Of a DNA stretch of 64,000 bases, positions 2,996 to 60,569 are shown piece after piece (position 1 is the stretch's first letter; every line of letters begins with the position of its first letter). The position numbers and the translations under genes are program-made. Location of the stretch: NCBI GenBank assembly GCA_051893155.1, contig JBJFGY010000017.1:1677-65676 (forward strand), in the 5' to 3' direction. The stretch is from Bacilli bacterium (GTDB lineage: Bacteria > Bacillota_I > Bacilli_A > RF39 > UBA660). The notes beneath the pieces are model-generated. The model was not told where the DNA came from. It made no database searches and saw nothing but the letters and a program-made list of their open reading frames with translations.

Positions 2996-3865
2996 TTATT
3001 TCTTATCTTTCTTTTCTTCACCTTGTAATCCTTCTTTAATACCTTTACTAATTTCTTTAGCAATTTGTCCATAAGTAGGTGCCATTTCTTTTGCAATACT
3101 TGCTCCAGCTTTACCTATTGAAGGTGCTATTTTTTCAATACCTTCTTGTGCAATAGGCATCATTTGTTGTGCAGAAAATGCAGCAATTTCTCTTCTTTTA
3201 GTCATCATATAAATAGATGAAGATATCATTACAGAAGCAATAATAATAAATACACCAACTATATATAAGTAATCATGTTTTCCAGCTTCATGTTTTCTAT
3301 TAAAATCAGAATATTTACTATCTAATAAATTTATTTCATTATTTTTTGCTTTTAACTCATTTTTTAATAAGCAATATGAAGCTGTATAATTATTATTCTT
3401 AGCACTATCAAAAGCACAATGATCAAAACTTTCATCTAGAGCGTTTTCTATTACATCAATTGATTTTTTATCATCAGCAATACTTTCTTTTAATTCTTCA
3501 ATTTTATCTTCTCTAGCATAATATGCATCATCAAATCCTGTAAAAGTAACTCTATCTAAACTTTTTATTTCATCTTCTATTGGTTTAATTTTTGCTTCAA
3601 GATCTTCCTTTGATTTTATAAGATTTTGTTTTTCTTCTTCAACTTGATTAGATAGTTGTTGTTTTTCGTTTTCCAATTGTTGTAATTCCTTTGCTTTGCT
3701 TTTTTCGGAATATTTTTCATTAACAGCATTTTGTTTTACTATTCCTGTAATTATTAAACTACCTCCTAGTAATAATCCAATAACTAAAATAATTAATGAA
3801 ATAGACTTAATTTTTTTCTTTCCTTTTAAATAATTTTCCTCAGTTAAAATTTCTTTTTTTTCCAT
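2996..3865 (-). CDS. coiled-coil membrane protein with N-proximal and C-proximal TM segments
   Basis: 289 aa. A TM at about aa 20-45, a long E/K/Q-rich coiled coil, a second TM near aa 215, and a tail with IAKE-type repeats. Confidence 0.4.
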   Translation of the reverse strand: MEKKEILTEENYLKGKKKIKSISLIILVIGLLLGGSLIITGIVKQNAVNEKYSEKSKAKELQQLENEKQQLSNQVEEEKQNLIKSKEDLEAKIKPIEDEIKSLDRVTFTGFDDAYYAREDKIEELKESIADDKKSIDVIENALDESFDHCAFDSAKNNNYTASYCLLKNELKAKNNEINLLDSKYSDFNRKHEAGKHDYLYIVGVFIIIASVMISSSIYMMTKRREIAAFSAQQMMPIAQEGIEKIAPSIGKAGASIAKEMAPTYGQIAKEISKGIKEGLQGEEKKDKK

Positions 3866-3880
3866 AAAAACTACCCTTCC

Positions 3881-4420
3881 TTATCTTTTAAAACTATTTT
3901 CTTTTTCTTGATTATATAATTGTAATTCAGAAAATGATAAATGACATTTTTTTAATGCATTATTTTTTATTTCAAATTCTTCATGTAAAATTGATGTAGT
4001 ACTAATTATATCATCTAGAGTAAGATATGTAAATGCTTTATTTGCCTGAATTATACCATCACAATAATTAAATATATCATCAATATTATTGATTTTATCT
4101 TTAATAGTATTTAAATATTCTTCAAGTTGTTTACTTTGATAAGATTCACTTTGATCAAGAAATATTACACCCGAACCATCAGGATATAAATCTGCAATTG
4201 CCGGCCTTACAATAAAATTTCCAAATAATTGTTGAAAACGACCATACTCATCTTTTGTTACTTTAGCAATTAGATACGAATTATCCTCATATTTTACTAC
4301 CCCATAATAATCTGCTTCAGTAAGCATTAGTCCCTCTTTAATACCAATTCCTTCCCAAGAACCCTTTGGATTAGTATCATTAGAATATCCAAATTCAATA
4401 GTTTTCATTTTTCCCTCCAT
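3881..4420 (-). CDS. hypothetical protein
   Basis: 179-aa ORF with an RBS-like ggaggg upstream. No recognisable family. Confidence 0.4.
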   Translation of the reverse strand: MEGKMKTIEFGYSNDTNPKGSWEGIGIKEGLMLTEADYYGVVKYEDNSYLIAKVTKDEYGRFQQLFGNFIVRPAIADLYPDGSGVIFLDQSESYQSKQLEEYLNTIKDKINNIDDIFNYCDGIIQANKAFTYLTLDDIISTTSILHEEFEIKNNALKKCHLSFSELQLYNQEKENSFKR

Positions 4421-4578
4421 ATTTAACTAAATTATATCAAATATTCAATAAAAAGTCTTATATTTTGATTTAATTAAATATTTTTTACAAAATTTTATAT
4501 TAATAAGAATCATTTTAAATCAGCATCTAATTTTTATAGTTACTATTTTCAAGGATAATAAAACTAGAGGTGGTATTT

Positions 4579-4683
4579 ATGACTAAAAAAGATGGTTTAA
4601 ATTTTAGAAATATGCAAATATTAAGAGAAAAGCAAAATATAACTCAAGTTAAACTTAGTTTATTAGTTGGCGTATCTCAGTAG
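4579..4683 (+). pseudogene. decayed XRE/Cro-C1 type helix-turn-helix regulator remnant
   Basis: Good RBS (agaggtggt) followed by an ATG. MTKKDGLNFRNMQILREKQNITQVKLSLLVGVSQ, then an in-frame TAG, then SIIHLQN. It matches the HTH_XRE consensus LTQeeLAekLGVSrqtIsrwEnG but is interrupted. Confidence 0.35.
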
Positions 4684-4758
4684 AGTATTATTCACTTGCA
4701 AAATTAAATGTTCCTCTTTTTTATTTTATGCAAAATTTCTTGCTAAATATTTTACAAA

Positions 4759-4832
4759 TGGTGCCGAATACAAGAATTGAACTTGTGGCTAAAGCTTACC
4801 ATGCTTTTGTTTTACCATTAAACTAATTCGGC
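4759..4832 (-). tRNA. tRNA-Thr (anticodon GGT)
   Basis: Reverse complement GCCGAATTAGTTTAATGGTAAAACAAAAGCATGGTAAGCTTTAGCCACAAGTTCAATTCTTGTATTCGGCACCA folds as a cloverleaf. Acceptor 7 bp, D-stem GTTT/AAAC, anticodon stem AAAGC/GCTTT with loop ATGGTAA, T-arm ACAAG-TTCAATT-CTTGT, CCA encoded. Confidence 0.6.
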
Positions 4833-4933
4833 ATAAATAAATTATATAATTAATTATTAAAAATGTAAACTTTAAAATATAATAGATTTATTTATAGCTA
4901 AATGATATAATTAGTATAATAAGAGGTGGAAAG

Positions 4934-5440
4934 ATGAGAGAAGCTGTTGGTTCTAGTTGGATATTTTTTATAGTAATAAGTTTTACGCTTATTTTCGCAG
5001 GTTTTTTAGTTATGGCACTAAGTTATTCAAAAACATATAAATTGAAAAATGAACTTACTTCGATAATTGAAAAGTATGAGGGTTTAACTCAAACTGATAC
5101 TTCGGGAAATAAAGTAAGTGGTTCAATTAATATAATGAATACATATCTTCAAAATAGTAATTATGTTGGAAGAGGTACTTGCTATGATGGTTCAAGTACA
5201 ATGTATGGATTTAATTTAGATGATACAATGGCAAATGTTGCTAAAGAAAATGAAAAATACTCATATTGTGTAAAAGTTATGACAAATACAAAAACTTGTG
5301 AAACATTATTTAGAGTTACTTTATTTTATGAATTTAATCTTCCTGTTCTTGGTGATTTATCGAAATTTAAAGTTTCTGGTCAAACAAACGAAGTAAATAA
5401 TGCATTTATTAATGATGTTCAAATTAAATGTGTAAGTTAA
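4934..5440 (+). CDS. secreted or membrane-anchored Cys-containing protein of unknown function
   Basis: RBS aagaggtgg. An N-terminal TM or signal anchor (IFFIVISFTLIFAGFLVMALSY), then a soluble domain with 5 Cys. A terminator follows. Confidence 0.5.
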   Translation: MREAVGSSWIFFIVISFTLIFAGFLVMALSYSKTYKLKNELTSIIEKYEGLTQTDTSGNKVSGSINIMNTYLQNSNYVGRGTCYDGSSTMYGFNLDDTMANVAKENEKYSYCVKVMTNTKTCETLFRVTLFYEFNLPVLGDLSKFKVSGQTNEVNNAFINDVQIKCVS

Positions 5441-5446
5441 ATAACA

Positions 5447-5480
5447 AAACAAAAAACCCCATTAAATGGGGATTTTATTT
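5447..5480 (+). terminator. rho-independent terminator
   Basis: aaaaaaccccattaaatggggattttatttg: a ccccatt/aatgggg stem followed by a T run. Confidence 0.6.
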
Positions 5481-5485
5481 GCTTC

Positions 5486-5561
<76 letters not shown>

Positions 5562-5564
5562 AAA

Positions 5565-5641
5565 TGGCGGTTCCAACGGGATTTGAACCCGTGATCTCTT
5601 GCGTGACAGGCAAGCGTGATAGGCCGCTACACTATGGAACC
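5565..5641 (-). tRNA. tRNA-Asp (GTC)
   Basis: Reverse complement GGTTCCATAGTGTAGCGG...CCTGTCACGCAAG...GGTTCAAATCCCGTTGGAACCGCCA. Confidence 0.9.
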
Positions 5642-5643
5642 AT

Positions 5644-5721
<78 letters not shown>

Positions 5722-5732
5722 ATATTTCAACT

Positions 5733-5825
5733 TGGCGGGGGAAAAGGGATTCGAACCCCTGCGCCGGTTACCCGACCTCCTGGTTTTCAAGACCAGTCCC
5801 TTCAACCGGACTTGGGTATTCCCCC
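5733..5825 (-). tRNA. tRNA-Ser (TGA)
   Basis: Reverse complement GGGGGAATACCCAAGTCCGGTTGAAGGGACTGGTCTTGAAAACCAG plus a long variable arm, ...GGTTCGAATCCCTTTTCCCCCGCCA. 93 nt. Confidence 0.9.
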
Positions 5826-5844
5826 ACTTTTTCAAGTGCAATTT

Positions 5845-5940
5845 GATTATAGCATATATTATTTTAACTTGTCAATCAACTTTTAAAAAAAAATACTTGC
5901 AAAGTACTAAAAAAAAAGATATAATTAAATAGTCTTATCA
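5845..5940. promoter_or_regulatory. divergent sigma-A-type promoters for the minus-strand tRNA operon and plus-strand tRNA-Leu
   Basis: Minus orientation: TTGACA, 17 nt, CTATAAT. Plus orientation: CTTGCA, 17 nt, TATAAT upstream of tRNA-Leu. Confidence 0.45.
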
Positions 5941-5959
5941 AATTAAGACAAGTGCCTTT

Positions 5960-6048
5960 GCCCGAGTGGCGGAATAGGTAGACGCACAGGACTTAAAATC
6001 CTGCGAGTATAAAAACTCGTGCCGGTTCAAGTCCGGCCTCGGGCACCA
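5960..6048 (+). tRNA. tRNA-Leu (TAA)
   Basis: GCCCGAGTGGCGGAATAGGTAGACGCACAGGACTTAAAATCC plus a long variable arm, ...GGTTCAAGTCCGGCCTCGGGCACCA. Confidence 0.9.
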
Positions 6049-42798: not shown

Positions 42799-44415
42799 TT
42801 AATAATTTAATGTCCTAAATTTTTTTACGCCATATTTACAAATTACAAAGTATAGTATAATTATAGTTAATATAAAAACAATAATTTGTAAAATAATAAC
42901 TATATAAGCAATTTTATAAAATTTTATCATAATAAGTATTGAAATAAGACCTAAACCCATTCCTAAAAATACAGCAACCATAGAACTTAAACTTTGTTTA
43001 ATTACTTCTACTTCAGTTGTCCACTTTAATTTAGGATATTTTAAATTAATTAAAATACCAATCATTGCACTAAGTGTTGGAACAGTCAATGTTAAAAATA
43101 TAATAAAGATTATATCTAATAATTTCACTTTAAAAAAAATTATAAATACTAAATCATTAATAAACATAAGTGGAATTACTAAAATCATACTAAATAATAC
43201 TTTTGAAAATATAATACTTTTTTCATTTATTGGTAAACTTTTTATAATATTTATTTTCTTACCTTCTAAAGAAATACTTGAAGAAGTAATAGATGTCATA
43301 AAACTTATAAAAATAATTATTTCAAAATATATTACTGGAGCATATTTTGTTATAGAAACAATTGAAATTTGTTCTTGCATATCACCATTAATTAAATTAA
43401 CAAAATTTTGAGAATTGCAACAAAAAAGTATTATCATAATAAGCATTAATATAATTCCAAACAAAGTATTAATTACATATACTGGAGAGGAAAAATAATA
43501 TTTAAATTCCTTTTTTATTAATGAAGTAATTTTATTATTTACTTTTATACTGTTATGATTATGCTTTTTTACTTTTTTTGTTTTAGTAACTGATGATTTA
43601 GATATAATCTTATAATAATTAATTGAGCCCAAATAAACAAAAATAATTAATGGAATTATATTAAATAAAATTAATTTTATAAAAGCTAATATATCAAATT
43701 TATTTATTAAGGATATATATGCATTTATTGGATAATAAAATTTTGTTATTATTTTATTAATAATTGGTGCTTTAGTGACAAAATTATTTACACTATTTTC
43801 CATTGAAAATGAAAAATAATAGATTATAACAAAAAAAATTATAGAAAGAATTGTTTGAACTCTTTTCTTATTTTTAAAATTAACAGATAAACCTTTTACA
43901 ATATATCCAATTATTGAAGCAATAATTGTAGGTATAATTGGTATTAGTAGAATCATTATTAAAGATATAAAATAAAAATTTACATTGGGATGTTCAAAAT
44001 ATGAATAAACAACTAAAGCAGGTAAAAATATCATTAATACATAAATATATTGAAATATTAAAAATTTAATTAGTCTTGCTAAAAATATTTTTTCCTTTTT
44101 TATAGGTAAAGAAAAAAGTAAATCATTATCTTCAGATTCAAATAAAATTCCTTGTGATTTAAAAAAACCTTGTAAAATTATAAAAAAAGATATTGCCATT
44201 ATAAATAAACTTAAACAAACATATGTTAAGTTAGCATCATGAAGTGGCTTTGCAAACATATAGGCATACACTCCTACTGAATACATTAGAAGTGCAAATA
44301 ATATTAATGGAAATAATATTTTTTTTATTTTTGATTTATTATTATTTGATTTTATTTTTAAAATATTTAATCCATCTTTTAATAAAACTTTTAATAAAGA
44401 TAATGTTTGTTTCAT
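42799..44415 (-). CDS. ABC transporter permease (large polytopic, ABC-2/exporter type)
   Basis: 538 aa with about 12 TM. Start overlaps the upstream ATPase gene. Confidence 0.5.
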   Translation of the reverse strand: MKQTLSLLKVLLKDGLNILKIKSNNNKSKIKKILFPLILFALLMYSVGVYAYMFAKPLHDANLTYVCLSLFIMAISFFIILQGFFKSQGILFESEDNDLLFSLPIKKEKIFLARLIKFLIFQYIYVLMIFLPALVVYSYFEHPNVNFYFISLIMILLIPIIPTIIASIIGYIVKGLSVNFKNKKRVQTILSIIFFVIIYYFSFSMENSVNNFVTKAPIINKIITKFYYPINAYISLINKFDILAFIKLILFNIIPLIIFVYLGSINYYKIISKSSVTKTKKVKKHNHNSIKVNNKITSLIKKEFKYYFSSPVYVINTLFGIILMLIMIILFCCNSQNFVNLINGDMQEQISIVSITKYAPVIYFEIIIFISFMTSITSSSISLEGKKINIIKSLPINEKSIIFSKVLFSMILVIPLMFINDLVFIIFFKVKLLDIIFIIFLTLTVPTLSAMIGILINLKYPKLKWTTEVEVIKQSLSSMVAVFLGMGLGLISILIMIKFYKIAYIVIILQIIVFILTIIILYFVICKYGVKKFRTLNY

Positions 44416-45122
44416 TTTTCATCCTCAAGTTCTAAAAATACTTCTTCTAAAGATTCGTCACCTTTAATATTTTTCATAGAACCAACTTTAATAAGTTTAC
44501 CATTTTTTATAATTGCTACTTCATCACAAAGTTTTTCAGCAACATCCAATATATGTGTTGAATAAAAAATGATTTTATTTTCTTTCACCATTTCCTTCAT
44601 TATTTTTTTCATATCAAACACGGCCTTTGGATCAAGACCTACAAATGGTTCGTCCATAATTAATATTTCTGGATTATGAGAAAGTGCTGCAATTAATGCA
44701 ACTTTTTGTTTCATTCCATGTGAAAAGCTTGATATTTCATCATATAAATTATTTTCAAGTTCAAGCATCTTTGCATATTTTCTAATGTTTTCTTCTCGCA
44801 CTTCTAATGGTGTTTCATACATATCACAAACAAAGTCAATAAAATCAATAGCTTTCATATTTTCATAAAGATCTGGATTATCTGGAATATAAGCCATTAT
44901 CTTTTTGCACTCTATAGGATTTTCTTTTATAGAATTTCCATTTATTAAAATATCTCCTTCATCAAATTCAATTATTCCCATCATTGCTTTTATCATTGTT
45001 GTTTTTCCTGCTCCATTATGACCTATAAAAGCAAAAATTTTTCCATTTTTAATATTAAAGTTCACATTATCAAGAGCTTTTTTTGTATTGTATTTTTTAC
45101 TAACATTTTTAATTTCTATCAT
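44412..45122 (-). CDS. ABC transporter ATP-binding protein
   Basis: Walker A GHNGAGKTT, signature FSHGMKQKVAL, Walker B ILIMDEPF. Confidence 0.85.
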   Translation of the reverse strand: MIEIKNVSKKYNTKKALDNVNFNIKNGKIFAFIGHNGAGKTTMIKAMMGIIEFDEGDILINGNSIKENPIECKKIMAYIPDNPDLYENMKAIDFIDFVCDMYETPLEVREENIRKYAKMLELENNLYDEISSFSHGMKQKVALIAALSHNPEILIMDEPFVGLDPKAVFDMKKIMKEMVKENKIIFYSTHILDVAEKLCDEVAIIKNGKLIKVGSMKNIKGDESLEEVFLELEDEK

Positions 45123-45817: not shown

Positions 45818-45843
45818 TATCCCTCCCTTCATTAACTAGCATT

Positions 45844-45872
45844 ATTATAACACCTACCACATATTTTGACAA
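45844..45872 (-). promoter_or_regulatory. sigma-A promoter for rpsU-yqeY
   Basis: Minus-strand reading: TTGTCA, 17 nt, TATAAT. It lies about 25 nt upstream of the RBS and only 6 nt downstream of the peptide-2 stop. Confidence 0.55.
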
Positions 45873-45877
45873 GATTT

Positions 45878-46033
45878 TTAACAACTTGTATGATTAAATA
45901 ATCGACGCAATGTTGAACCAAAATTTTGTCCATAACCATATATGGCAATAATTAATTTTCCTGCAGCAGCAAGCCAAGAAGCACTTACAGCTCCACCAAC
46001 ATATAAAACGCTTTCATCACTATTTAACACCAT
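45878..46033 (-). CDS. double-glycine-leader peptide 2 (candidate bacteriocin or signalling peptide precursor). Too small for the ORF track.
   Basis: My own translation: MVLNSDESVLYVGG then AVSASWLAAAGKLIIAIYGYGQNFGSTLRRLFNHTSC. The leader fits the GG-leader consensus (L-12, E-8, Y-4, GG). The predicted mature part of 37 aa has a GxxxG motif. The ATG is 1 nt after the peptide-1 stop. Confidence 0.55.
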   Translation of the reverse strand: MVLNSDESVLYVGGAVSASWLAAAGKLIIAIYGYGQNFGSTLRRLFNHTSC

Positions 46034-46034
46034 T

Positions 46035-46181
46035 TTATCTTATATTGCAAGCCTTTGGATTAGAAAAGCCATCAATAATTCCAAAAAAGAATGAACTAAT
46101 TACTGAAATAATAAAAATACTACCCAAAGAAAACTTTGCACCTCCTGTATATTTTATCATTTCATCATCTTTCAAAAGCAT
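46035..46181 (-). CDS. double-glycine-leader peptide 1 (candidate bacteriocin or signalling peptide precursor). Too small for the ORF track.
   Basis: Strong RBS GGAGGT 6 nt upstream. MLLKDDEMIKYTGG then AKFSLGSIFIISVISSFFFGIIDGFSNPKACNIR. The leader has L-12, E-8, M-7, Y-4 and GG. The mature part is hydrophobic with a GxxxG motif (GIIDG). Confidence 0.6.
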   Translation of the reverse strand: MLLKDDEMIKYTGGAKFSLGSIFIISVISSFFFGIIDGFSNPKACNIR

Positions 46182-46193
46182 GCTACCTCCTTT

Positions 46194-46601
46194 CTAAAAT
46201 ATAATTTTAAATATTTTTTTTATTATTTTTTCTTTATCAAAATAAAATGTTATTTTCACAACTTCATTTTCTTTTAAATTTATATTTGTTTTTAATGTAT
46301 AAATTTGATAGTTTTGGTAATTTTCATTTAATAAATCTGAAATATTATCAATCTTATAACTATATTCATCATTTTTTATTTTCATCTTATTATTTAAAGT
46401 TATTTTGTCAGAGTTTTCTACTAAAATGTTAACTTTAATAAAGCCATTTTCATAAATACCATAAGTATTAAAATTACTATATGATTCTAAAAAAAATGAA
46501 AGAATAATAAAAATAATAAATATACCTAAAAACATAATTAAAAATAAATTATTTTTATATTTAATATTTTGCAAATAATAATAACTACTTTTCATATTCA
46601 C
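46194..46601 (-). CDS. small N-anchored membrane protein (possible minimal or truncated HlyD/LcnD-like accessory, or an immunity protein)
   Basis: 135 aa with a single TM (LFLIMFLGIFIIFIILSFFL) and a roughly 95-aa extracytoplasmic part. It overlaps the PCAT stop by 17 nt and ends 12 nt before peptide 1. Confidence 0.45.
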   Translation of the reverse strand: MNMKSSYYYLQNIKYKNNLFLIMFLGIFIIFIILSFFLESYSNFNTYGIYENGFIKVNILVENSDKITLNNKMKIKNDEYSYKIDNISDLLNENYQNYQIYTLKTNINLKENEVVKITFYFDKEKIIKKIFKIIF

Positions 46602-48642
46602 CTTTTAAAGTAATAACTCGATCAAACAAATTATCTTGTTTTTTATGTGATATATAAATTATTGTTTTTTCTGGATATTCTCTAATAATATTTTTAATTA
46701 TTGTTTTTTCCATAAAATAATCTATTTCACTAAGTGCTTCATCTAAAATTAATATTTTACTATTTCTTAATAAAGCCCTTGCTAAAATAATTCTCTGTTT
46801 TTCACCTCCTGATATATTAATCGAATCATTACTTATTCCAAAATCATATCTTAATTTTCTTTTATTAACAATTAAATCGATTAAACAAATTTTACAAACT
46901 TTATCAAAATTACTTTCATCTTTATAATTAAATAAAATATTATTTTTTATTGTATCAGTATATAAATTTTCTTTTTGACCAACATAAACAATATTATTTT
47001 TTATTGTGTTAAGACTATAATCATTGATATTTATACCATTTATATAAATATTACCATTATTTAAAGAAAATTCTCTAGTAAGTAGTTTACATAAACTACT
47101 TTTACCACTTCCACTTTTTCCTTTAATCATGATTTTTTCATTAGTTTTAACTACTTCACTAAAATCTTTTATAATGTAATTATAATTATCATAAGCAAAG
47201 CTTACATTTTCAAAAATAATATCGCCATTAATTAGTTTTTTACTTTCACCAACTTTTTCCTCTTTTATATTTATAAAATCACATATTTTATTAAAACTTG
47301 CTCGTAAAAAATTATATTTTGGTATTAGTGATACTATATTTTTAATGGGGTCTATAAAATAAGATAAAAATGTATTATAAATAACTAAACTAATTAAAGA
47401 AAATTTATTATTATAAATTAAATAAAATCCATAAGTATTAATTAAAAAAAATGATAGTTCATAAAAAATATTTTTAATTGTTTCAAAAAAATTTATATTT
47501 ATATTAAAAGAATAATTATCAAAAATCAAATCACATATTTTATTTTCAATTTTATTTAAAATATTTTCAGTTTCATTTAAATTTTTTATACTATTTATCA
47601 TATTAATATTTTCTAATAAAATAGTATTAACTTCTGTTTGATATTCAATATTTTTTCGTATTCTTTTATAAAAATATGGACTAATTAAAATAGAAATTAT
47701 TATATAAATTACAACAAATATAATTAATATAAATGTTATTTTAATATTTAAATTTAAAAGAACTATAAAAGCAGCAAGGCAAATCATTAAGTCTAAAAAT
47801 GCAAAAATAAATATTTGTGAAAATAATTCTTTAATACTACTTATTTCGTTTACTCGTGACATTATTTCACCACTGCTTCTTGATTCAATAACATTTAAAG
47901 GAAGATGAAATAAATGATTAATAAATTCCTTAAAAACACTTATATCAATATTTTTATTAATATGATTTTCATAGTATTTTTTTAAATAATCAAAAATTAT
48001 TTTAAAAATAATACAAACTAAAAATATAAAAATTATTATTTTAATTGTATTTTGAAATGCATTGTTTGAAATAAATTCATTCATTATTTTAAAATACATT
48101 CCAGATATTACAGTAATAATTGTTAATAAAAAACTACATAATAATGCATTAATACATAATTTTTTATTTTTTATTAAAATTTTTATAAAAAGACTATAAA
48201 TACTATTTTCTTTTTCTAATAAAATAATTTTATCTTTAGGAGTAAATTGTAAAATAACGCCAGTAAATATTTTATTAAAATCATCTTTAGTCATTTTTAT
48301 CTTGCCTTTACTAGGATTCATTAAAATATAATTTGAATTTTTAATACCATATAAGCACATAAAATGCGTAAGACCATTATCATATTTCACGTGTACAATC
48401 GCAGGCAAAATAATGTTATCTAATTCTTTATCTTCAAATTTTTTAGCTATAGCATCAAATCCATACTTTTCCGCGGCTTTAAGTAAATGATAGACACTAA
48501 CCCCTTGCATTGATGTATAAGTATCAAGTCTAATCTTTTCTATTGGAACATAACCATTATAAAATCTTATAATAGATTGAAGACAACAAGCACCACAATC
48601 TTTTACATCTCTTTGACAAACTATTACTATTTTATTTTTCAT
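46585..48642 (-). CDS. peptidase-containing ABC transporter (C39 peptidase + 6TM + ABC ATPase), bacteriocin/peptide exporter
   Basis: N-terminal C39 motif VCQRDVKDCGACCLQSI with the conserved His (THFMCLYG). Walker A GKSGSGKSS, signature ISGGEKQRIILARAL, Walker B ILILDEALS. Confidence 0.85.
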   Translation of the reverse strand: MKNKIVIVCQRDVKDCGACCLQSIIRFYNGYVPIEKIRLDTYTSMQGVSVYHLLKAAEKYGFDAIAKKFEDKELDNIILPAIVHVKYDNGLTHFMCLYGIKNSNYILMNPSKGKIKMTKDDFNKIFTGVILQFTPKDKIILLEKENSIYSLFIKILIKNKKLCINALLCSFLLTIITVISGMYFKIMNEFISNNAFQNTIKIIIFIFLVCIIFKIIFDYLKKYYENHINKNIDISVFKEFINHLFHLPLNVIESRSSGEIMSRVNEISSIKELFSQIFIFAFLDLMICLAAFIVLLNLNIKITFILIIFVVIYIIISILISPYFYKRIRKNIEYQTEVNTILLENINMINSIKNLNETENILNKIENKICDLIFDNYSFNININFFETIKNIFYELSFFLINTYGFYLIYNNKFSLISLVIYNTFLSYFIDPIKNIVSLIPKYNFLRASFNKICDFINIKEEKVGESKKLINGDIIFENVSFAYDNYNYIIKDFSEVVKTNEKIMIKGKSGSGKSSLCKLLTREFSLNNGNIYINGININDYSLNTIKNNIVYVGQKENLYTDTIKNNILFNYKDESNFDKVCKICLIDLIVNKRKLRYDFGISNDSINISGGEKQRIILARALLRNSKILILDEALSEIDYFMEKTIIKNIIREYPEKTIIYISHKKQDNLFDRVITLKGEYEK

Positions 48643-48827
48643 TTATTTATCCTCCTTTCACCCTACTTATACTCACAATAAATTATTTTTCCTTTTTATT
48701 TTTTTACTTTTAAAATTTTTAATTTAAATTTAACAATTTTTTACTAAAATTAATAATAAAATTTTACAATTATTAACAGTTATATTTTTAGGACTTAGAC
48801 AATATAATTTACTATGTATAAGGAGGA

Positions 48828-49331
48828 ATGAAAGTATTGATTAATAAACAAAATTTATGGTTTATAACTTTATTTGCACTTATTTTAATTTTAGGAATTT
48901 ATTATATTACATTACCGGATAATGCCATACCAACATTTTCGACTAATGAAACAAACTTACAAAATACAATCGAAGTTACAGATTCTGATGTAATTATAGC
49001 TCTTAAAGTTGAAGAAGAAGAAAAAATATTAAAAGAAATGGAAGAAGCACAAAAAATATTACTAGATAATGCTGCAACTACAGAAGAAAAAAATGCTGCA
49101 TATGAAACATTACAACAACTTAATTTTAAAAAAGGCAAAATAGTTGAAATAGAAAAATTAATTAAAGAAAAATTTGATGTTGATTCATGTGTTAAAATTG
49201 ATGGAAATAAAATAAATATTACGTTATCATGTGAAGATAAAGGTGCAGAATTTGCAAATAATGTTATTAAAGAAGTACAAACACTTTATAGTTCGCAAAT
49301 GTATATAACAATTAAATTTCAAAGTAAATAG
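48828..49331 (+). CDS. N-anchored sporulation-type protein (SpoIIIAH-like architecture; assignment tentative)
   Basis: 167 aa. TM, an E-rich coiled linker, and a C-terminal domain ending ...VKIDGNKINITLSCEDKGAEFANNVIKEV... Confidence 0.3.
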   Translation: MKVLINKQNLWFITLFALILILGIYYITLPDNAIPTFSTNETNLQNTIEVTDSDVIIALKVEEEEKILKEMEEAQKILLDNAATTEEKNAAYETLQQLNFKKGKIVEIEKLIKEKFDVDSCVKIDGNKINITLSCEDKGAEFANNVIKEVQTLYSSQMYITIKFQSK

Positions 49332-49372
49332 GCTTATATATTACCTTTTTTTTGTATTTTTCATAATATATT

Positions 49373-49606
49373 ATGAAGCATAAGAAAGGAAGGCCTATGA
49401 AAAAAATGTTATTAACCAAAAGAGAACAAGAAATTTTTGAACTTTTAGTTCTTAACAAATCAACTAAAGAAATAGCCGAAAAACTCAATATTAGTCAAAA
49501 AACTGTTCGAAATCATATATCTAATACAATGCAAAAATTAGGTGTTAAAGGCCGATGTAATGCGATAATAGAATTATTAAAACTTGGAGCAATTTCATTA
49601 GATTAA
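49373..49606 (+). CDS. gerE: sporulation transcription regulator GerE (LuxR-type HTH)
   Basis: LLTKREQEIFELLVLNKSTKEIAEKLNISQKTVRNHISNTMQKLGVKGRCNAIIELLKLG closely matches the GerE pattern. The real start is probably the ATG at 49397 after the aaggaagg RBS. Confidence 0.8.
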   Translation: MKHKKGRPMKKMLLTKREQEIFELLVLNKSTKEIAEKLNISQKTVRNHISNTMQKLGVKGRCNAIIELLKLGAISLD

Positions 49607-49610
49607 TAAA

Positions 49611-49636
49611 AAAGCCAATAAGGCTTTTTTTGAATA
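49611..49636 (+). terminator. rho-independent terminator after gerE
   Basis: aaaaagccaataaggcttttttt: an agcc/ggct stem plus a T run. Confidence 0.55.
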
Positions 49637-49675
49637 AAGAATAAAATATTAAATATAATTTATTAGGTGATGTAA

Positions 49676-50578
49676 ATGCTAAAAAGACGTGCTATAAAAA
49701 GAATAATTATATCTACAGGTGCACTTCTTATATTTTTTTTAATTTATTTTTTCCCAAATCAAAATAATTTTTCTATTCCAGAAGAAGTAATATATATTGA
49801 AGAATTAACTTTACCACTATATACAATAGATCAAAATAATTATGTTGCAAGAACAAATATTATAAAAAAAGAAAATGATGATATAAACTATATAATAAAT
49901 GTTTTAACAAAAGGTTCAATTAATTCAAATTATCTACCTAGTAATTTTTACTCGCCTATACCAAAAGGTACAAAGTTAATTGACTATAGCTTAAATGATG
50001 GACTTTTAAAACTTAATTTTTCAAAAGAATTATTAAATGTAACAAAATCAGATGAAGAAAAAATGCTTGAAAGTTTAATATATTCATTATGTGAACTTGA
50101 TAATGTAAATAAAATTATGATTTTTGTTGAAAATGAAAAATTAAACGAACTTCCAAATTCAAAGACTAAACTACCTACCGTTTTAGATAAAACTTACGGA
50201 ATAAATAAAGTATATGATATTAAAAATATTAAAGATACCACTAAAACAACAATATACTATTTAAGTAAATATGAAGATGATTTATATTATGTTCCAATTA
50301 CAAAAATTACTAATAATGATGAAAAAAATTATGTAGAAATAATCGTTAATGAATTAAAAACTTCTCCAATTTATGAAAGTAATTTATTAAGTTATTTAAA
50401 TGCTAGTTATGAACTTGAAAGTTATGAAATACTAGAAAATTCTATTACATTATCATTTAATAATAATTTAATTGCTTCTTTAGAAGATAAAGATTTAGTA
50501 GAAAAAGTTAAATATTCAATTTCACTTTCTTTAAGGGACACATATAATCTAGATAATATTATAATTAATGTGAATTAA
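49676..50578 (+). CDS. gerM: GerM-like germination/sporulation protein (two GerMN-type repeats), N-anchored
   Basis: 300 aa. N-terminal TM. Two repeats with ...KLNFS.../...TLSFN... modules, resembling the GerMN domain organisation. Tentative. Confidence 0.4.
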   Translation: MLKRRAIKRIIISTGALLIFFLIYFFPNQNNFSIPEEVIYIEELTLPLYTIDQNNYVARTNIIKKENDDINYIINVLTKGSINSNYLPSNFYSPIPKGTKLIDYSLNDGLLKLNFSKELLNVTKSDEEKMLESLIYSLCELDNVNKIMIFVENEKLNELPNSKTKLPTVLDKTYGINKVYDIKNIKDTTKTTIYYLSKYEDDLYYVPITKITNNDEKNYVEIIVNELKTSPIYESNLLSYLNASYELESYEILENSITLSFNNNLIASLEDKDLVEKVKYSISLSLRDTYNLDNIIINVN

Positions 50579-50990: not shown

Positions 50991-51067
<77 letters not shown>

Positions 51068-55425: not shown

Positions 55426-56688
55426 ATGGATAATCTATTTAAAGAAAGACATATTTTATGTATTGATTTAAAAAGTTTTTTTGCTTCATGCGAATGCGTA
55501 AAAAAAGGTGTTAATCCATTTAATTATCCCCTTGTAGTGGCAAATCCTAATCAAGGTGATGGAGCTATCACTTTAGCTGTTACACCATTTTTAAAAAAAC
55601 TTGGAGTTAAATCAAGAGGAAGAATTTTTGAAATACCTAAAAATATTAAATACGAAATAGCTATGCCACATATGAACTATTATATAAATAAAAGTAAAGA
55701 AGTCGTTTCCGTATATTTAGATTATGTTGCTAAAGAGGATATTCATATATATTCTATTGATGAATGTTTTTTAGATGTAACTTCTTATTTGAAATTATAT
55801 CAAAAAACTGATTATGAACTTGCTAAAGATATATTAAAAAAAGTTTATGATAAAACTGGTCTTACAGCTACATGTGGTATAGGTCCTAATATGTTACTTG
55901 CTAAAGTATCAATGGATATTGAAGCAAAGCATAATACTGATTGTATAAGCAAATGGACATATGATGATGTACCTAAAAAATTATGGAAAATTAGCCCTCT
56001 TAGTGATATGTGGGGTATTGGTAAAAATATGGAAAAAAGATTAAATTCTATGAATATTTTTACTATAAAAGATTTAGCTAAAACTAATCCAGGTATTTTA
56101 AAAGATAAATTTGGAATTATTGGAATTGAACTATGGAATCATGCAAATGGAATTGATAATAGTGAAATTAAAGATTTTAATAATATAACTAAAGATAAAT
56201 CATATTCTAATTCCCAAGTTTTATTCAAAGATTATAATGGAAAAAATATATTTATTATAATGAATGAAATGATTGATAATTTATGTGCAAGACTTAGAAA
56301 AAATAATAAAGAATGTTTAACTTTTGGTTTAGGAATTACATATTCCAAAAATACTCCAGGAGGTTTTTATCATAATGTAAAATTAGATAATGCCACAGAT
56401 AAAATGACTGATTTAATAAAATATGCAAGCATTATTTTTGATCGTTATTATGAAAACTTACCTATAAGAAAAGTAACTGTTTGTGCTGGAAATTTGAGAG
56501 ATAAATTAGGAACGCAATTAAATTTATTTGAAGAATATGTAGATATAAAAAAAGAAGATAATATAAATGAAGTAATTGATCAAATAAAAAAAAAGTATGG
56601 AAAAAATAGTGTTCTAAAAGCCTCAAGTTTACTTGAAGATTCAACGATAAAAGAAAGAAATAATAAAGTTGGAGGTCATAATGCATAA
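55426..56688 (+). CDS. Y-family DNA polymerase (UmuC/ImpB/YqjW-like)
   Basis: ILCIDLKSFFASCE, DECFLDVT, GIGPNMLLAKVSMD are Y-family palm/finger motifs. Start set at MDNLF after a GGGAGG RBS. Confidence 0.85.
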   Translation: MDNLFKERHILCIDLKSFFASCECVKKGVNPFNYPLVVANPNQGDGAITLAVTPFLKKLGVKSRGRIFEIPKNIKYEIAMPHMNYYINKSKEVVSVYLDYVAKEDIHIYSIDECFLDVTSYLKLYQKTDYELAKDILKKVYDKTGLTATCGIGPNMLLAKVSMDIEAKHNTDCISKWTYDDVPKKLWKISPLSDMWGIGKNMEKRLNSMNIFTIKDLAKTNPGILKDKFGIIGIELWNHANGIDNSEIKDFNNITKDKSYSNSQVLFKDYNGKNIFIIMNEMIDNLCARLRKNNKECLTFGLGITYSKNTPGGFYHNVKLDNATDKMTDLIKYASIIFDRYYENLPIRKVTVCAGNLRDKLGTQLNLFEEYVDIKKEDNINEVIDQIKKKYGKNSVLKASSLLEDSTIKERNNKVGGHNA

Positions 56689-57001
56689 TATTGAAAGAGG
56701 TATTATAAAGTGGGCTCCTTTTAATTCAGTAGTATCTGGTAATGAAATGTTAAATAGCATTATAAAAGAAAAAAATAAAATAACAATGCCTACTTTATCT
56801 GATGAACAAAAAGAAGTTATAGAAAAAAAATTAATTTTAGCCCTTTACAGTCAAAATATAGTTAATATTTATTATTTTCAAAATGGAAAAATTTTAAATA
56901 TTAAATCAAATATAAAAAAAATAGACTCTACTTATCATAAAATCTATTTTCAAAATAAAGTTATCTTATTTGAACAAATAATTGAAATTAACCAACTATA
57001 A
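56681..57001 (+). CDS. YolD-like protein (UmuD-analogue partner of Firmicute Y-family polymerases)
   Basis: About 106 aa, overlapping the polymerase stop. IKWAPFNS-type motif and conserved synteny. The family assignment is by context and memory. Confidence 0.5.
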   Translation: MHNIERGIIKWAPFNSVVSGNEMLNSIIKEKNKITMPTLSDEQKEVIEKKLILALYSQNIVNIYYFQNGKILNIKSNIKKIDSTYHKIYFQNKVILFEQIIEINQL

Positions 57002-57799: not shown

Positions 57800-58150
57800 T
57801 TAATTTTTAGGTTTAAAAAATATACAAATTATAAACGCAAATACAATTGCCGCAGTTATCGCAAGAGAACTTTTACATAAAAGTCCTGAAAACAATCCTA
57901 ATATTCCTTCATTTTCAAAGCCTTCTATACCGCCTAAAAAAAGCATATTACCAAAATTCATTATTAAAATAGTAGCTCCTACTCCACATTTTTCTATTAA
58001 AGTTGGATAAACGCCTAAAAATGCAAGCAATGCTCCAATAACAGTAAATATTGAAGTAATATGTCCTGGCGTAAGTTTAGTATTATCTAGAATTATTTGA
58101 CCAATCATACAAACAAAACCCGCTAGTAAAAATGCATTTAAATATATCAT
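57800..58150 (-). CDS. spoVAE: stage V sporulation protein AE (SpoVAEB-type)
   Basis: 116 aa. AFLLAGFVCMIGQIILDNTKLTPGHITS...GVGATILI..FGN... is collinear with SpoVAEB. Confidence 0.85.
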   Translation of the reverse strand: MIYLNAFLLAGFVCMIGQIILDNTKLTPGHITSIFTVIGALLAFLGVYPTLIEKCGVGATILIMNFGNMLFLGGIEGFENEGILGLFSGLLCKSSLAITAAIVFAFIICIFFKPKN

Positions 58151-59121
58151 GATAACACCTCAATTTTTACTGCATGACTAATTGCAGGAACCGTTTGATG
58201 TTGATTAACAAGTACTGGCGTATGTAATGAACCACTTCCAACAAGTAAAATTCTTTTATATTTTTTGCTTTTTAAAATTTTTGTAAAAAATATAAGTGGT
58301 AGACAGCAAGGACCAGATCCTCCTGAATACATCTGACTATCTAAAAAAATTTCACAACCAGCATCCATAATTTTATTTAATTTTTCATGATATATTGTTT
58401 CATAATATTCCTTTAAAATATCTAATCCCACACATCCTAAATCACCTGTTAAAATCAAATCATAATCTTTCATAGTTTCATTATTATTTTTTAAGAAATT
58501 ATAAATTGTATCTGCACAAGCTGGAGCCATAATTGCACCCATGTGATTTACATCATTTATTCCTAGATTTATTACCTTACCTACTAAAGCCGAAGAAACT
58601 TTTATATTTGTTTTATCATTTGACAAAATTGCACCTGTACTTGCAGTTACTGTACATGTAGCAGTGGTAGGTTTTGGTGCACCATATTCCACCGGATAAC
58701 GATATTGTCTTTCCGCAGTTAAATTATGTGATGAAGTTAAACAAATAATATTTTTAGCATTTTTACTTTCAATTAAATTAGCACCTAAAATAATAGAAAG
58801 TGGAAAAGTTGCACAAGCTGCATAAACGCCAATAAAAGGAATATTATAATCCATCATAGTATAGTTTGAAATTGCAATTTGATTTATTAAATCCCCTGCT
58901 ATTATATAATTAATATTTTCTTGGCTTAAATTATTTTTATTAAGCAAATTGAGAATTACTAATCTTTGCATTTTAATTTCTGCAAGTTCAAAAGTTTTTT
59001 CTCCAAAATAATAATCATCAAATTTTAAATTATAATTTGTTATCTTACTATCTTTTTCTTTAGGACCAACAATAGAAAAATAATCTTTAATATAAACATT
59101 ATTAAAATTTAAATTAGCCAT
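58147..59121 (-). CDS. spoVAD: stage V sporulation protein AD
   Basis: 324 aa, thiolase/KAS-like fold (…GDLINQ…, …GCVGL…). Canonical position between spoVAC and spoVAE. Confidence 0.85.
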   Translation of the reverse strand: MANLNFNNVYIKDYFSIVGPKEKDSKITNYNLKFDDYYFGEKTFELAEIKMQRLVILNLLNKNNLSQENINYIIAGDLINQIAISNYTMMDYNIPFIGVYAACATFPLSIILGANLIESKNAKNIICLTSSHNLTAERQYRYPVEYGAPKPTTATCTVTASTGAILSNDKTNIKVSSALVGKVINLGINDVNHMGAIMAPACADTIYNFLKNNNETMKDYDLILTGDLGCVGLDILKEYYETIYHEKLNKIMDAGCEIFLDSQMYSGGSGPCCLPLIFFTKILKSKKYKRILLVGSGSLHTPVLVNQHQTVPAISHAVKIEVLS

Positions 59122-59551
59122 AGAAAACCACCTTTATAACACATAAAATAAAAGCTGATATAATTCCGTATAATAAAACTGATCCTGCAAGTTTAAAAAA
59201 ATTAGCACCAAGCCCTGTTATCATTCCATCTTTTTTATATTCCAAACCACAACTAGTTATACTATGGGCAAAACCTGTTGTAGGAACAATAAGGCCACAT
59301 TTTGTTTTAGTAACCCAATCATCAAAAAAATTAAGACCCGTAAATAAAGATGCTAAAAATATTGTAATTAAACATACAACACTATAACTTACCTTTACTG
59401 ACATGCCAAATAATATAACTAAAAGTCTAGAAATAATTTGACCAATTAATCCTAACGATCCACCAACTACAAAAGCAATAAACATATTTTTTAATTTGTT
59501 TTGTTTAGGATACTTTTTTTTAACAAGATTTTTATACTCTTCTTTATCCAA
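59114..59551 (-). CDS. spoVAC: stage V sporulation protein AC
   Basis: 145 aa. NMFIAFVVGGSLGLIGQII..., 4 TM, collinear with SpoVAC. Confidence 0.85.
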   Translation of the reverse strand: MDKEEYKNLVKKKYPKQNKLKNMFIAFVVGGSLGLIGQIISRLLVILFGMSVKVSYSVVCLITIFLASLFTGLNFFDDWVTKTKCGLIVPTTGFAHSITSCGLEYKKDGMITGLGANFFKLAGSVLLYGIISAFILCVIKVVFYG

Positions 59552-59555
59552 AATA

Positions 59556-59596
59556 AATCACCATTATTATTATTTATTTAAATGGTGATTTTATAC
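59556..59596 (-). terminator. hairpin between the sigma gene and spoVAC (terminator or attenuator separating the two operons)
   Basis: aaatcaccattattattatttatttaaatggtgattt: a 10-bp stem. Confidence 0.45.
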
Positions 59597-60247
59597 TTAT
59601 AAAGTCAAAAACTTTTGCATTTTATCTAAACCTTTTTTTTCATATCTTGAAACCATAACTTGAGTCATAGATAGTTTTCTTGCAACTTCACATTGAGTTA
59701 AATCCTCAAAATATCTTGATTTAATAATATTTCTTTCATCTTCTGAAAGCAAATCCATACTTTCATCAATTAATATTTTATCATCAATTGAAACTTTTTC
59801 TTCACTTTTTATAGTATCATATAAACTAATATTTTCATCACTATCAAGACTCATTATACTTTGTCCAGCCATAACTGCTTCATATATTTTACTTTTATCT
59901 ATTTCAAGAAAATTAGCAACATCTTCATAACTTGGAACAAAGCCATTATTTTGAGTAAGAGAAAATCTTGTTTGTTCAATTAATTTATAAAGTTTTAAAA
60001 TATCTTTATTTATTTTAAGGGGTCTATTATTAACTAATAAATACATTTCTCCATAAATATAATTGTAAGCAAAACTTGTAAATTTAGCATTAAAACTTTC
60101 ATCGTATTGTTTATATGCTTTTAAAAGTCCTAACACTCCTGCTTGAAATAAATCTTCTTTAGGATAACCATAAAATTTTTTAGCAATATCATAAATAAGC
60201 CCAGCATTTTGATTAATAATTTCTTCTTTAATCATATTAAACCTCAA
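59597..60247 (-). CDS. sigF: sporulation sigma factor, SigF/SigG/SigB-type (group 3 sigma-70), short N-terminus
   Basis: Region 2 (DLFQAGVLGLLKAYKQYD, FTSFAYNYIYGEM), region 3 and region 4 HTH (LTQCEVARKLSMTQVMVSRYEKK). At 216 aa it is about 35 aa shorter at the N-terminus than B. subtilis SigF. Confidence 0.65.
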   Translation of the reverse strand: MRFNMIKEEIINQNAGLIYDIAKKFYGYPKEDLFQAGVLGLLKAYKQYDESFNAKFTSFAYNYIYGEMYLLVNNRPLKINKDILKLYKLIEQTRFSLTQNNGFVPSYEDVANFLEIDKSKIYEAVMAGQSIMSLDSDENISLYDTIKSEEKVSIDDKILIDESMDLLSEDERNIIKSRYFEDLTQCEVARKLSMTQVMVSRYEKKGLDKMQKFLTL

Positions 60248-60569
60248 TAGTTTTTAATGCTGTAAGTTCATTATCAAGTTTCTTTATATGCAATTTATGT
60301 AATTTTTTATTTAAATCTTTATTTACTTCACATATATACATAATTCCTTTATTATTTTTTATAGCAAATTTAGTATTTAATAATGCATCTAACCCATTAT
60401 CATCAATATCCTCAAGGAAGTAGAAATTATAAACTAAATATTTTATTTTATGTTTTAATAATACAGGTACTAAATAATTATTAACTTTGTAAGAAGTAGA
60501 ACGATTTAACACTCCATCAAGTCTTACAAAAAGTATTCCTTTATCATATTCTAAATTCATTTTTAACAT
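60237..60569 (-). CDS. spoIIAA: STAS-domain anti-sigma-factor antagonist (SpoIIAA-like)
   Basis: 110 aa. GILFVRLDGVLNRSTSYKVNNYL... is STAS-like. Position immediately upstream of the sigma gene. The usual phospho-serine motif DSSGLG appears as DDNGLD. Confidence 0.55.
   Translation of the reverse strand: MLKMNLEYDKGILFVRLDGVLNRSTSYKVNNYLVPVLLKHKIKYLVYNFYFLEDIDDNGLDALLNTKFAIKNNKGIMYICEVNKDLNKKLHKLHIKKLDNELTALKTIEV

Follow-up and report, generated by a model that had tools for sequence, protein, structure and literature searches.

A four-gene operon with two double-glycine leader peptides

The 64,000-nucleotide (nt) stretch of DNA analyzed here, called the window in what follows, comes from a Bacilli bacterium (contig JBJFGY010000017.1 of assembly GCA_051893155.1, positions 1,677 to 65,676 of the forward strand). 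Two short, adjacent and co-oriented open reading frames (ORFs) lie on its minus strand, at 46035..46181 (peptide 1) and 45878..46033 (peptide 2), and each encodes a peptide with a double-glycine (GG) leader. An earlier note on this DNA had described this arrangement correctly and had read it as a candidate two-peptide (class IIb-like) bacteriocin. The two genes close an operon of four genes on one strand, in the order C39 ATP-binding cassette (ABC) exporter, 133-amino-acid (aa) membrane protein, peptide 1, and peptide 2. Packing is tight, with an 11-nt overlap between the exporter and the 133-aa gene, a 12-nt gap between the latter and peptide 1, and a 1-nt gap between the two peptide genes.

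The precursor of peptide 1 (48 aa) consists of the leader MLLKDDEMIKYTGG (46140-46181, minus strand), of 14 residues with GG at residues 13-14, and of the mature part AKFSLGSIFIISVISSFFFGIIDGFSNPKACNIR (46038-46139, minus strand), which carries the ladder S16xxxG20xxxG24 and Cys31. The predicted mature peptide has 34 aa, a mass of 3697.3 Da, a net charge of +2, the motif GIIDG and one Cys. The precursor of peptide 2 (51 aa) is built in the same way from the leader MVLNSDESVLYVGG (45992-46033, minus strand; 14 residues, GG at residues 13-14) and the mature part AVSASWLAAAGKLIIAIYGYGQNFGSTLRRLFNHTSC (45881-45991, minus strand), which contains G21xxxG25, S26, R29, R30 and the C-terminal Cys37; its predicted mature form has 37 aa, 3958.5 Da, a net charge of +3, the motif GQNFG and one Cys. 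These lengths, motifs and single Cys residues agree with those given in the earlier note. Both leaders follow the pattern L(-12), E(-8), Y(-4), GG, and a six-frame scan of the window for leaders with a hydrophobic residue at -12, an acidic one at -8 and a hydrophobic one at -4 found only these two ORFs with GG; the same scan also returned an ORF with G-A (56641-56760, minus strand), which looks spurious. The mature peptides of both types are cationic, hydrophobic and 34-38 aa long; the two from the window have the size, charge and hydrophobicity usual for class IIb peptides, and the mature forms are apparently unmodified.

The strong ribosome-binding site (RBS) that had been attributed to peptide 1 is present: the Shine-Dalgarno sequence AAAGGAGGT (46185-46193, minus strand) lies directly 3' of the stop codon of the 133-aa gene, 3 nt (AGC) ahead of the ATG of peptide 1, and the coding strand reads TAG AAAGGAGGT AGC ATG. 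An AGGAG-type site is kept ahead of peptide 1 in all 12 loci examined in the window's clade, which include 10 species representatives. As the earlier note had also stated, peptide 2 starts 1 nt past the stop codon of peptide 1 (spacer at 46034..46034, minus strand; junction AGA TAA a ATG GTG), and no Shine-Dalgarno-like sequence for peptide 2 is found at the window's junction. The layout AGATAA[a/t]ATGGTG is the same in 12/12 loci of the clade, and most distant lineages are without such a junction. The spacer at 46034 is a candidate site of termination-reinitiation coupling.

The first gene of the operon (46585..48642, minus strand) encodes an exporter of 685 aa of the peptidase-containing PCAT/AMS type, in which an N-terminal C39 domain with catalytic Cys and His is fused to an ABC exporter core of six transmembrane (TM) helices and an ATPase domain. 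It matches the Pfam families Peptidase_C39 (1.5e-34), ABC_membrane (1.6e-32) and ABC_tran (2.2e-24). Its score against TIGR01193 (383.6 bits) lies under the curated cutoff of 523.85, which makes it a divergent member of the PCAT group. The best solved relatives, both aligned end to end, are ComA of Streptococcus pneumoniae (6e-89) and PCAT1 of Clostridium thermocellum (1.8e-86). Gln10, Cys16 and His93 align with the catalytic residues of ComA, and the Walker A, signature and Walker B motifs are present. However, the third residue of the C39 triad is Asn109 (ILMNP; 48316-48318, minus strand), whereas 16/16 relatives, including the closest (L002), have Asp (MDP). This Asn may do no harm, as in papain, or may make leader cleavage less efficient. 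From its domains and motifs, the exporter would be expected to cleave after GG and to export both peptides.

The second gene (46194..46595, minus strand), whose start overlaps the exporter stop codon, encodes a single-pass membrane protein of 133 aa that had no family match in the Pfam and NCBIfam scans. In a profile-profile comparison (hhalign) of its family with HlyD adaptors, the N-terminus and the C-terminal tail correspond in place, at a level that is not significant. The protein is probably a minimal HlyD-like or membrane-fusion-like accessory protein. Accessory proteins of class IIb systems may function in secretion and/or immunity (PMC2850506), and the 133-aa protein is, speculatively, the sole immunity candidate inside the operon. 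An accessory-like gene of 130-155 aa is absent from the distant loci L026, L029 and L033 and truncated in L028; its absence from the first three indicates that it is not indispensable, and that the minimal conserved set consists of the exporter and the peptide pair.

Conservation of the reading frames and of the two peptide families

Databases label both peptides "hypothetical protein" or leave them uncalled. A word-index protein search returned close relatives only, and none of them bears an informative name: peptide 1 has six, at 72-90% identity, and peptide 2 has five, at 77-92%. The contigs of these close relatives come from pig and human gut metagenomes and metagenome-assembled genomes (MAGs), and gene order is the same in all of them. 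Two readings of the locus at the level of gene calling were rejected. A gene of 64/65 aa for peptide 2 is a gene-caller artefact produced by an out-of-frame upstream start inside peptide 1, which is blocked by a stop codon in the window; and the stop-free antisense frame, of up to 103 aa in window-clade relatives, is not kept in distant loci.

It may be asked whether the two ORFs are chance open frames or the remnant of a decayed pair. Three facts lean that way: the gene caller missed peptide 2 on contig L001, the window's C39 domain has exchanged Asp for Asn, and in the distant locus L021 both peptide leaders are broken by frame shifts at poly-A runs (about 2220-2540, oriented), which are either assembly errors or a true decay of the pair. 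However, L021 is the exception. The earlier note had held that frame disruption in homologues would speak against coding sequence, and neither ORF is disrupted in any of the 12 window-clade loci, which all keep the 1-nt junction; indeed both are intact in every locus but L021. Among the window-clade loci, the pooled ratio of nonsynonymous to synonymous substitution rates (dN/dS, NG86 method of Nei and Gojobori) amounts to 0.48 (peptide 1) and 0.19 (peptide 2); the corresponding values are 0.38 for the 133-aa gene, 0.21 for the ABC exporter, 0.16 for yqeY and 0.02 for rpsU. Variable columns are in excess at third codon positions (15/11/20 at positions 1/2/3 in peptide 1; 15/10/29 in peptide 2). 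Both peptides are under purifying selection, moderate to strong, and not under diversifying selection. In addition, the window has a G+C content of 23.4%, and in such AT-rich, stop-rich DNA chance ORFs are short and unlikely. Together with the conserved RBS and junction and the 57 cluster representatives described below, these comparative data effectively refute an origin by chance or decay.

The peptide 1 profile was used to search 1.84 billion cluster representatives at a threshold of E<1e-3. The resulting family comprises 57 cluster representatives, nearly all of 43-60 aa and matched over their full length, which share a GG leader, about 20 hydrophobic residues, an (S/A)xxxGxx[D/E]G ladder and a tail x-x-[N/R]-P-x-x-C-N; the signature G-x-x-[D/E]-G-x-x-N-P-x-x-C-N follows the hydrophobic helix. 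The precursor residues G34, G38 and C45 are invariant or nearly so. For peptide 2, the signature is G-Q-x-x-G-S-x-x-R-R ... C, and in an alignment of 20 sequences GG, G35, G39 and C51 are invariant and S40, R43 and R44 occur in at least 90%. Leaders among the relatives are 12-17 residues long. The GxxxG motifs noticed earlier in the single pair thus hold for both families, with small residues at both Gly positions in 100% of the 57 and 20 members. In composition shuffles, one GxxxG per peptide in a single pair was only mildly unlikely (0.156 x 0.275 = 0.043); the real evidence for the motif is its constancy across both families. Counted from the second Gly of the motif, the Cys comes 7 residues later in peptide 1 and 12 later in peptide 2, and this spacing is fixed.

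More distant loci were sought by scanning metagenome contigs with a degenerate DNA pattern for the peptide 1 tail, built to exclude the window's clade. The scan yielded 18 loci of 22-29% G+C. A gene of the peptide 1 type is followed by a GG-leader gene of the peptide 2 type in 18/18 of them, and a C39 exporter precedes the pair wherever upstream sequence is present. Such strict co-occurrence of both types at about 30-50% identity suggests that the two peptides function together. As to the translational coupling proposed for the pair, the layout that suggests it is found throughout the window's clade, whereas 13 of the 18 distant loci have a peptide 2 gene with its own AGGAG-type RBS after a gap of 9-30 nt; the 1-nt coupling is limited to the window's clade.

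These distant loci also bear on the idea that the operon encodes two independent one-peptide (class IId-like) bacteriocins, or a bacteriocin and its inducing pheromone, which merely share an exporter. Loci with several independent GG peptides are common, as in the blp and pln loci, and peptide 2 has its own RBS in most lineages. In one distant locus (L036, 6820-7276, oriented) there are even three GG-leader peptides: a divergent peptide 1 paralogue (…GFIKGYKKAPRCP), a peptide of the peptide 1 type and one of the peptide 2 type. However, every locus examined has one of each type, adjacent to each other, with identities falling as low as about 30-40%; GxxxG and Cys are invariant at fixed spacing in both types; and no kinase or regulator is present to serve a pheromone. 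We regard independent action of the two peptides as improbable.

A third small ORF was observed past peptide 2 in three distant loci (L021, about 2541-2714; L022, 4213-4368; L034, 3549-3734; all oriented). It has a peptide-2-like core, G-x-x-x-G-[ST]-x-x-R, with an N-terminal TM anchor and no GG leader, and in L021 and L034 it also has a Cys near the C-terminus. It is perhaps an immunity mimic, or else a third component of the system; the window contains no leaderless peptide-2-like paralogue.

Function and genomic setting of the pair

On the strength of these sequence features, we consider it fairly probable that the pair is an antagonistic two-peptide (class IIb-like) bacteriocin, representing a new sequence family in a four-gene export operon. 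Peptide 1 would be translated from its strong RBS and, in the window's clade, peptide 2 by reinitiation, which would give roughly 1:1 amounts. The C39 domain (Cys16/His93) would then cut after GG, and the transporter would export the 34-mer (3697 Da, +2) and the 37-mer (3958 Da, +3), with the 133-aa protein acting as a stripped-down HlyD-like accessory factor. For class IIb bacteriocins, it has been proposed that GxxxG motifs in both peptides lead two transmembrane helices to pair in parallel (PMC2850506). The window peptides may likewise, once outside the cell, form parallel helices packed through their invariant small-xxx-small faces, namely S16xxxG20xxxG24 (peptide 1) and G21xxxG25 (peptide 2). 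Because each peptide has an invariant Cys at a fixed distance C-terminal of the motif (7 and 12 residues, respectively), the two chains may be joined by a disulfide or may share a receptor contact. The pair would permeabilize the membranes of competing, probably related, gut Firmicutes.

Several observations weigh against this interpretation. Within the operon, no immunity gene is recognizable, there is no further ORF between the two peptide genes or behind peptide 2, and some lineages consist of the exporter, peptide 1 and peptide 2 only. No separate strong promoter for the structural genes was found in the promoter scan, the window's exporter carries Asn109 in its C39 triad, the tight coupling of the two genes is a trait of one clade, and no curated or solved bacteriocin family resembles the mature cores. 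There is also no regulatory two-component system near the peptide locus in the annotated loci: in L002, L008-L010 and L039-L048, the genes called within about 8 kb include no kinase or response regulator, and the sole regulator nearby is a 77-aa GerE-type protein. In several lineages, with RpsU proteins 95%, 77% and about 50% identical to that of the window, the cluster is found immediately upstream of rpsU-yqeY; exporter and peptide identities drop in step with those of the flanking housekeeping genes, and the cluster is present in 10/10 places where RpsU is identical to that of the window. Such a distribution is indicative of ancient vertical inheritance, an uncommon history for a dispensable weapon, and the stability of the cluster resembles that of a core function more than that of such a weapon. 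The ten places with identical RpsU probably sample one abundant species, and core status is not thereby established.

The same observations feed another explanation, in which the pair is exported and processed but is non-antagonistic, acting as a heterodimeric signal or as a near-core membrane or envelope factor for the producer itself. The lack of an immunity gene, the minimal set of exporter and two peptides, the synteny with rpsU-yqeY at a divergence proportional to that of the housekeeping neighbors, the presence of the cluster in all 10 places that share the window's RpsU, and the purifying rather than diversifying selection on both peptides are all in keeping with it. Moreover, C39 exporters lacking known GG substrates are a recognized puzzle in mycoplasmas (PMC6609329). 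However, no sensor kinase or response regulator is found near the locus in the annotated loci; the peptides resemble membrane-inserting class II bacteriocins and not short pheromones; and the count of ten identical-RpsU places probably reduces to a single species. In addition, the exporter/accessory module shows allelic replacement between closely related genomes that are otherwise 94-99% identical. Loci L016, L018 and L020 are 92-99% identical from peptide 1 downstream, whereas identity between L016 and L018/L020 drops to 69-84% in the exporter and the 131-aa gene; the breakpoint is sharp at the start of peptide 1 (locus about 3300-5950), and L020 has unrelated DNA ahead of its exporter. Such an allelic mosaic is recombination typical of competition loci. 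Taken together, a non-antagonistic role appears possible, though rather unlikely. Its more specific form, an ancient, vertically inherited and disulfide-stapled heterodimer with a cell-surface or signaling role, served by a minimal PCAT and needing no immunity gene, is doubtful in our view.

The 185-nt region between the exporter gene and a divergent spoIIIAH-like gene (48643..48827, minus strand) contains the RBS of the ABC gene, GAAAGGAGG, and presumably also the operon promoter; a consensus scan is uninformative in DNA of 23% GC (67 sites found, 72.7 expected). Downstream, the promoter of rpsU (TTGTCA, 17 nt, TG-n-TATAAT; 45844..45872, minus strand) begins 6 nt past the stop codon of peptide 2. 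It is the best minus-strand site in the scan, with 11/12 matches and an extended -10 element. No terminator-like site was found between the peptide operon and rpsU within 45833-45877, and transcripts of the exporter and peptides probably read through into the essential rpsU-yqeY. Rfam and repeat scans found no regulatory RNA or meaningful repeat at the locus.

Past peptide 2, the genes are rpsU, yqeY, an ABC ATPase (44412-45122, minus strand; Pfam ABC_tran) and a 538-aa permease with 12 TM helices (42799-44415, minus strand; Pfam 12TM_1/ABC_tran_2). The ATPase/permease pair stays linked to the cluster in the window's clade wherever the contig reaches far enough downstream, and it is absent behind yqeY in L023, L026 and L036. 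Speculatively, this pair (42799-45122) is a candidate self-protection exporter.

Upstream of the operon, the divergent genes are spoIIIAH-like, gerE and GerM-like. Sporulation-type genes recognized by Pfam in the regions 57800-60569 and 48828-50578 comprise the SpoIIIAH-like protein, GerE and GerM (Germane), and SpoVA-like proteins, a sigma factor and an anti-sigma antagonist are also apparent by eye. Contigs of related organisms carry labels such as "Bacilli bacterium", "Mycoplasma sp. CAG:472" and "Bacillales bacterium UBA6448"; the sporulation-type genes of the window indicate a spore-former-like member of the Bacillota, even though related MAGs bear "Mycoplasma" labels. An abundant related lineage (L039-L048) has RNase J and rpsT upstream of the cluster in place of the sporulation genes. 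The window also contains a cluster of six tRNA genes (4762-6045) and a lone tRNA gene (50991-51064) just downstream of the GerM-like region.

Whatever its function, the pair defines two linked, previously unnamed peptide families in uncultured low-GC gut bacteria, both of them widespread in human and pig gut metagenomes, and the mature peptides of 34 and 37 aa are short enough for chemical synthesis. If they are antimicrobial, they would constitute a new class IIb family with one invariant Cys per peptide, a miniature accessory protein and no recognizable immunity gene, and would provide a handle on competition inside an abundant, unstudied gut lineage; if they are also disulfide-linked, they would be the first class II two-peptide bacteriocin to be joined covalently. 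If they are inactive, their core-like conservation would point to non-antagonistic export of GG-leader peptides, which is relevant to the C39 exporters of mycoplasmas and minimal cells. A stapled heterodimer at the cell surface or in signaling, if true, would give the "orphan" C39 exporters of Mollicutes-like bacteria their first defined class of substrates.

Comparison with known families and systems

The earlier note had pointed to the GxxxG motifs of pairs of the lactococcin G and plantaricin EF/JK type. The mature cores are not homologous to lactococcin G, to the plantaricins or to any curated family. The window peptides match no Pfam family at E<=0.1, PF10439 included, and the NCBIfam scan gave nothing beyond a sub-threshold match of the peptide 1 leader to NF038034 (lactococcin G-beta/enterocin 1071B; 14.3 bits, E 0.034, with a cutoff of 37 bits). 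Across the 57 members of the peptide 1 family, whole precursors gave sub-threshold matches to lactGbeta_entB (36/57), TIGR03949 (35/57) and PF10439 (28/57), and the leader-driven matches of the best relatives to PF10439 and TIGR03949 reached 6.4e-05 and 1.6e-06. The lactococcin G-beta and TIGR03949 signals were rejected as leader-driven, since they are gone once the leader is removed; ten mature cores scanned without their leaders matched no bacteriocin model, and those of six family members gave nothing against NF038034. A few members of the family also matched the "MPN313 family" model weakly, and this match was not used. Both family profiles were compared with all PDB sequences, which gave chance matches only (PsbI, a fucose lectin) and no solved two-peptide bacteriocin, and a full-text literature search for the motif strings returned no relevant paper. 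As far as these comparisons reach, the mature cores are new, linked sequence families, and the leader alone is common with known class II peptides.

In a plasmid collection, peptide 2 had no match, and the consensus of peptide 1 matched only a lactococcin-G-like gene of Enterococcus raffinosus (44% identical, E 0.5, mostly in the leader). The E. raffinosus megaplasmid NZ_CP081847.1 (2426-5150) carries a beta-like gene annotated as a member of the lactococcin G-beta/enterocin 1071B family, preceded by a 40-aa "hypothetical protein" that we read as its alpha-like partner. Next to this lactococcin-G-like pair are an Rgg regulator, a PAP2-family phosphatase and a split C39/ABC exporter. The phosphatase is notable because lactococcin G acts on an undecaprenyl-pyrophosphate phosphatase, UppP.

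In class IIb systems, an immunity gene always accompanies the two structural genes, the preforms carry a double-glycine leader of 15-30 residues, and a dedicated ABC transporter, with an accessory protein beside it, cuts after GG and exports the peptides (PMC2850506). At the window locus, the adjacent genes, GG leaders, dedicated C39 ABC transporter and GxxxG motifs in both peptides correspond to this description and sustain that part of the class IIb-like interpretation. The leaders, at 14 residues, are one short of the stated range, and no immunity gene is recognizable in the same operon, so that in this respect the interpretation does not hold. A pheromone system of the ComC/BlpC/PlnA type is not apparent either, as the locus has no cognate histidine kinase or response regulator.

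A close architectural parallel is offered by the group of lactococcin G, enterocin 1071 and lactococcin Q, in which adjacent GG-leader genes share their operon with genes for a C39 ABC exporter and an accessory protein, and which has cationic, helical or hydrophobic mature peptides of about 35-39 aa with GxxxG in both. Unlike this group, the window pair is without a lagC-like immunity gene, has one invariant Cys per peptide (the lactococcin G peptides are not known to contain Cys), and belongs to a chromosomal locus, syntenic beside rpsU, of uncultured low-GC gut Bacilli. Plantaricins EF and JK are also paired GG-leader peptides with GxxxG or small-xxx-small packing, a dedicated PCAT and an accessory protein (PMC2850506). 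However, the solved plantaricin peptides were not matched in the PDB search, and the pln loci carry immunity genes and a circuit of pheromone, kinase and regulator, none of which was found at the window locus.

The relation to the solved transporters themselves, ComAB/ComC and PCAT1, is limited by the substrates, which in the window are two hydrophobic peptides of 34-37 aa and not a 17-aa pheromone. Unlike ComAB/ComC, the window locus has no ComDE-type system, and the exporter's partner has 133 aa, compared with roughly 450 aa in the ComB/HlyD type. The closest annotated exporters in the plasmid collection are those of clostridial plasmids, pRSJ21_1 of C. botulinum and 12-kb plasmids of C. perfringens, at 31-32% identity over 97-98% of the query. 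On pRSJ21_1, the C39 ABC gene adjoins a gene annotated as "Blp family class II bacteriocin", and at both plasmid loci examined an adaptor gene follows the exporter with overlapping stop and start codons, at the position of the 133-aa gene. In contrast to the window locus, these adaptors are full-length HlyD proteins of 476-509 aa, the plasmids are mobilizable and the peptides are unrelated. Set against these systems, the gene architecture of the window locus is familiar from class IIb bacteriocins, and its peptide families are new.

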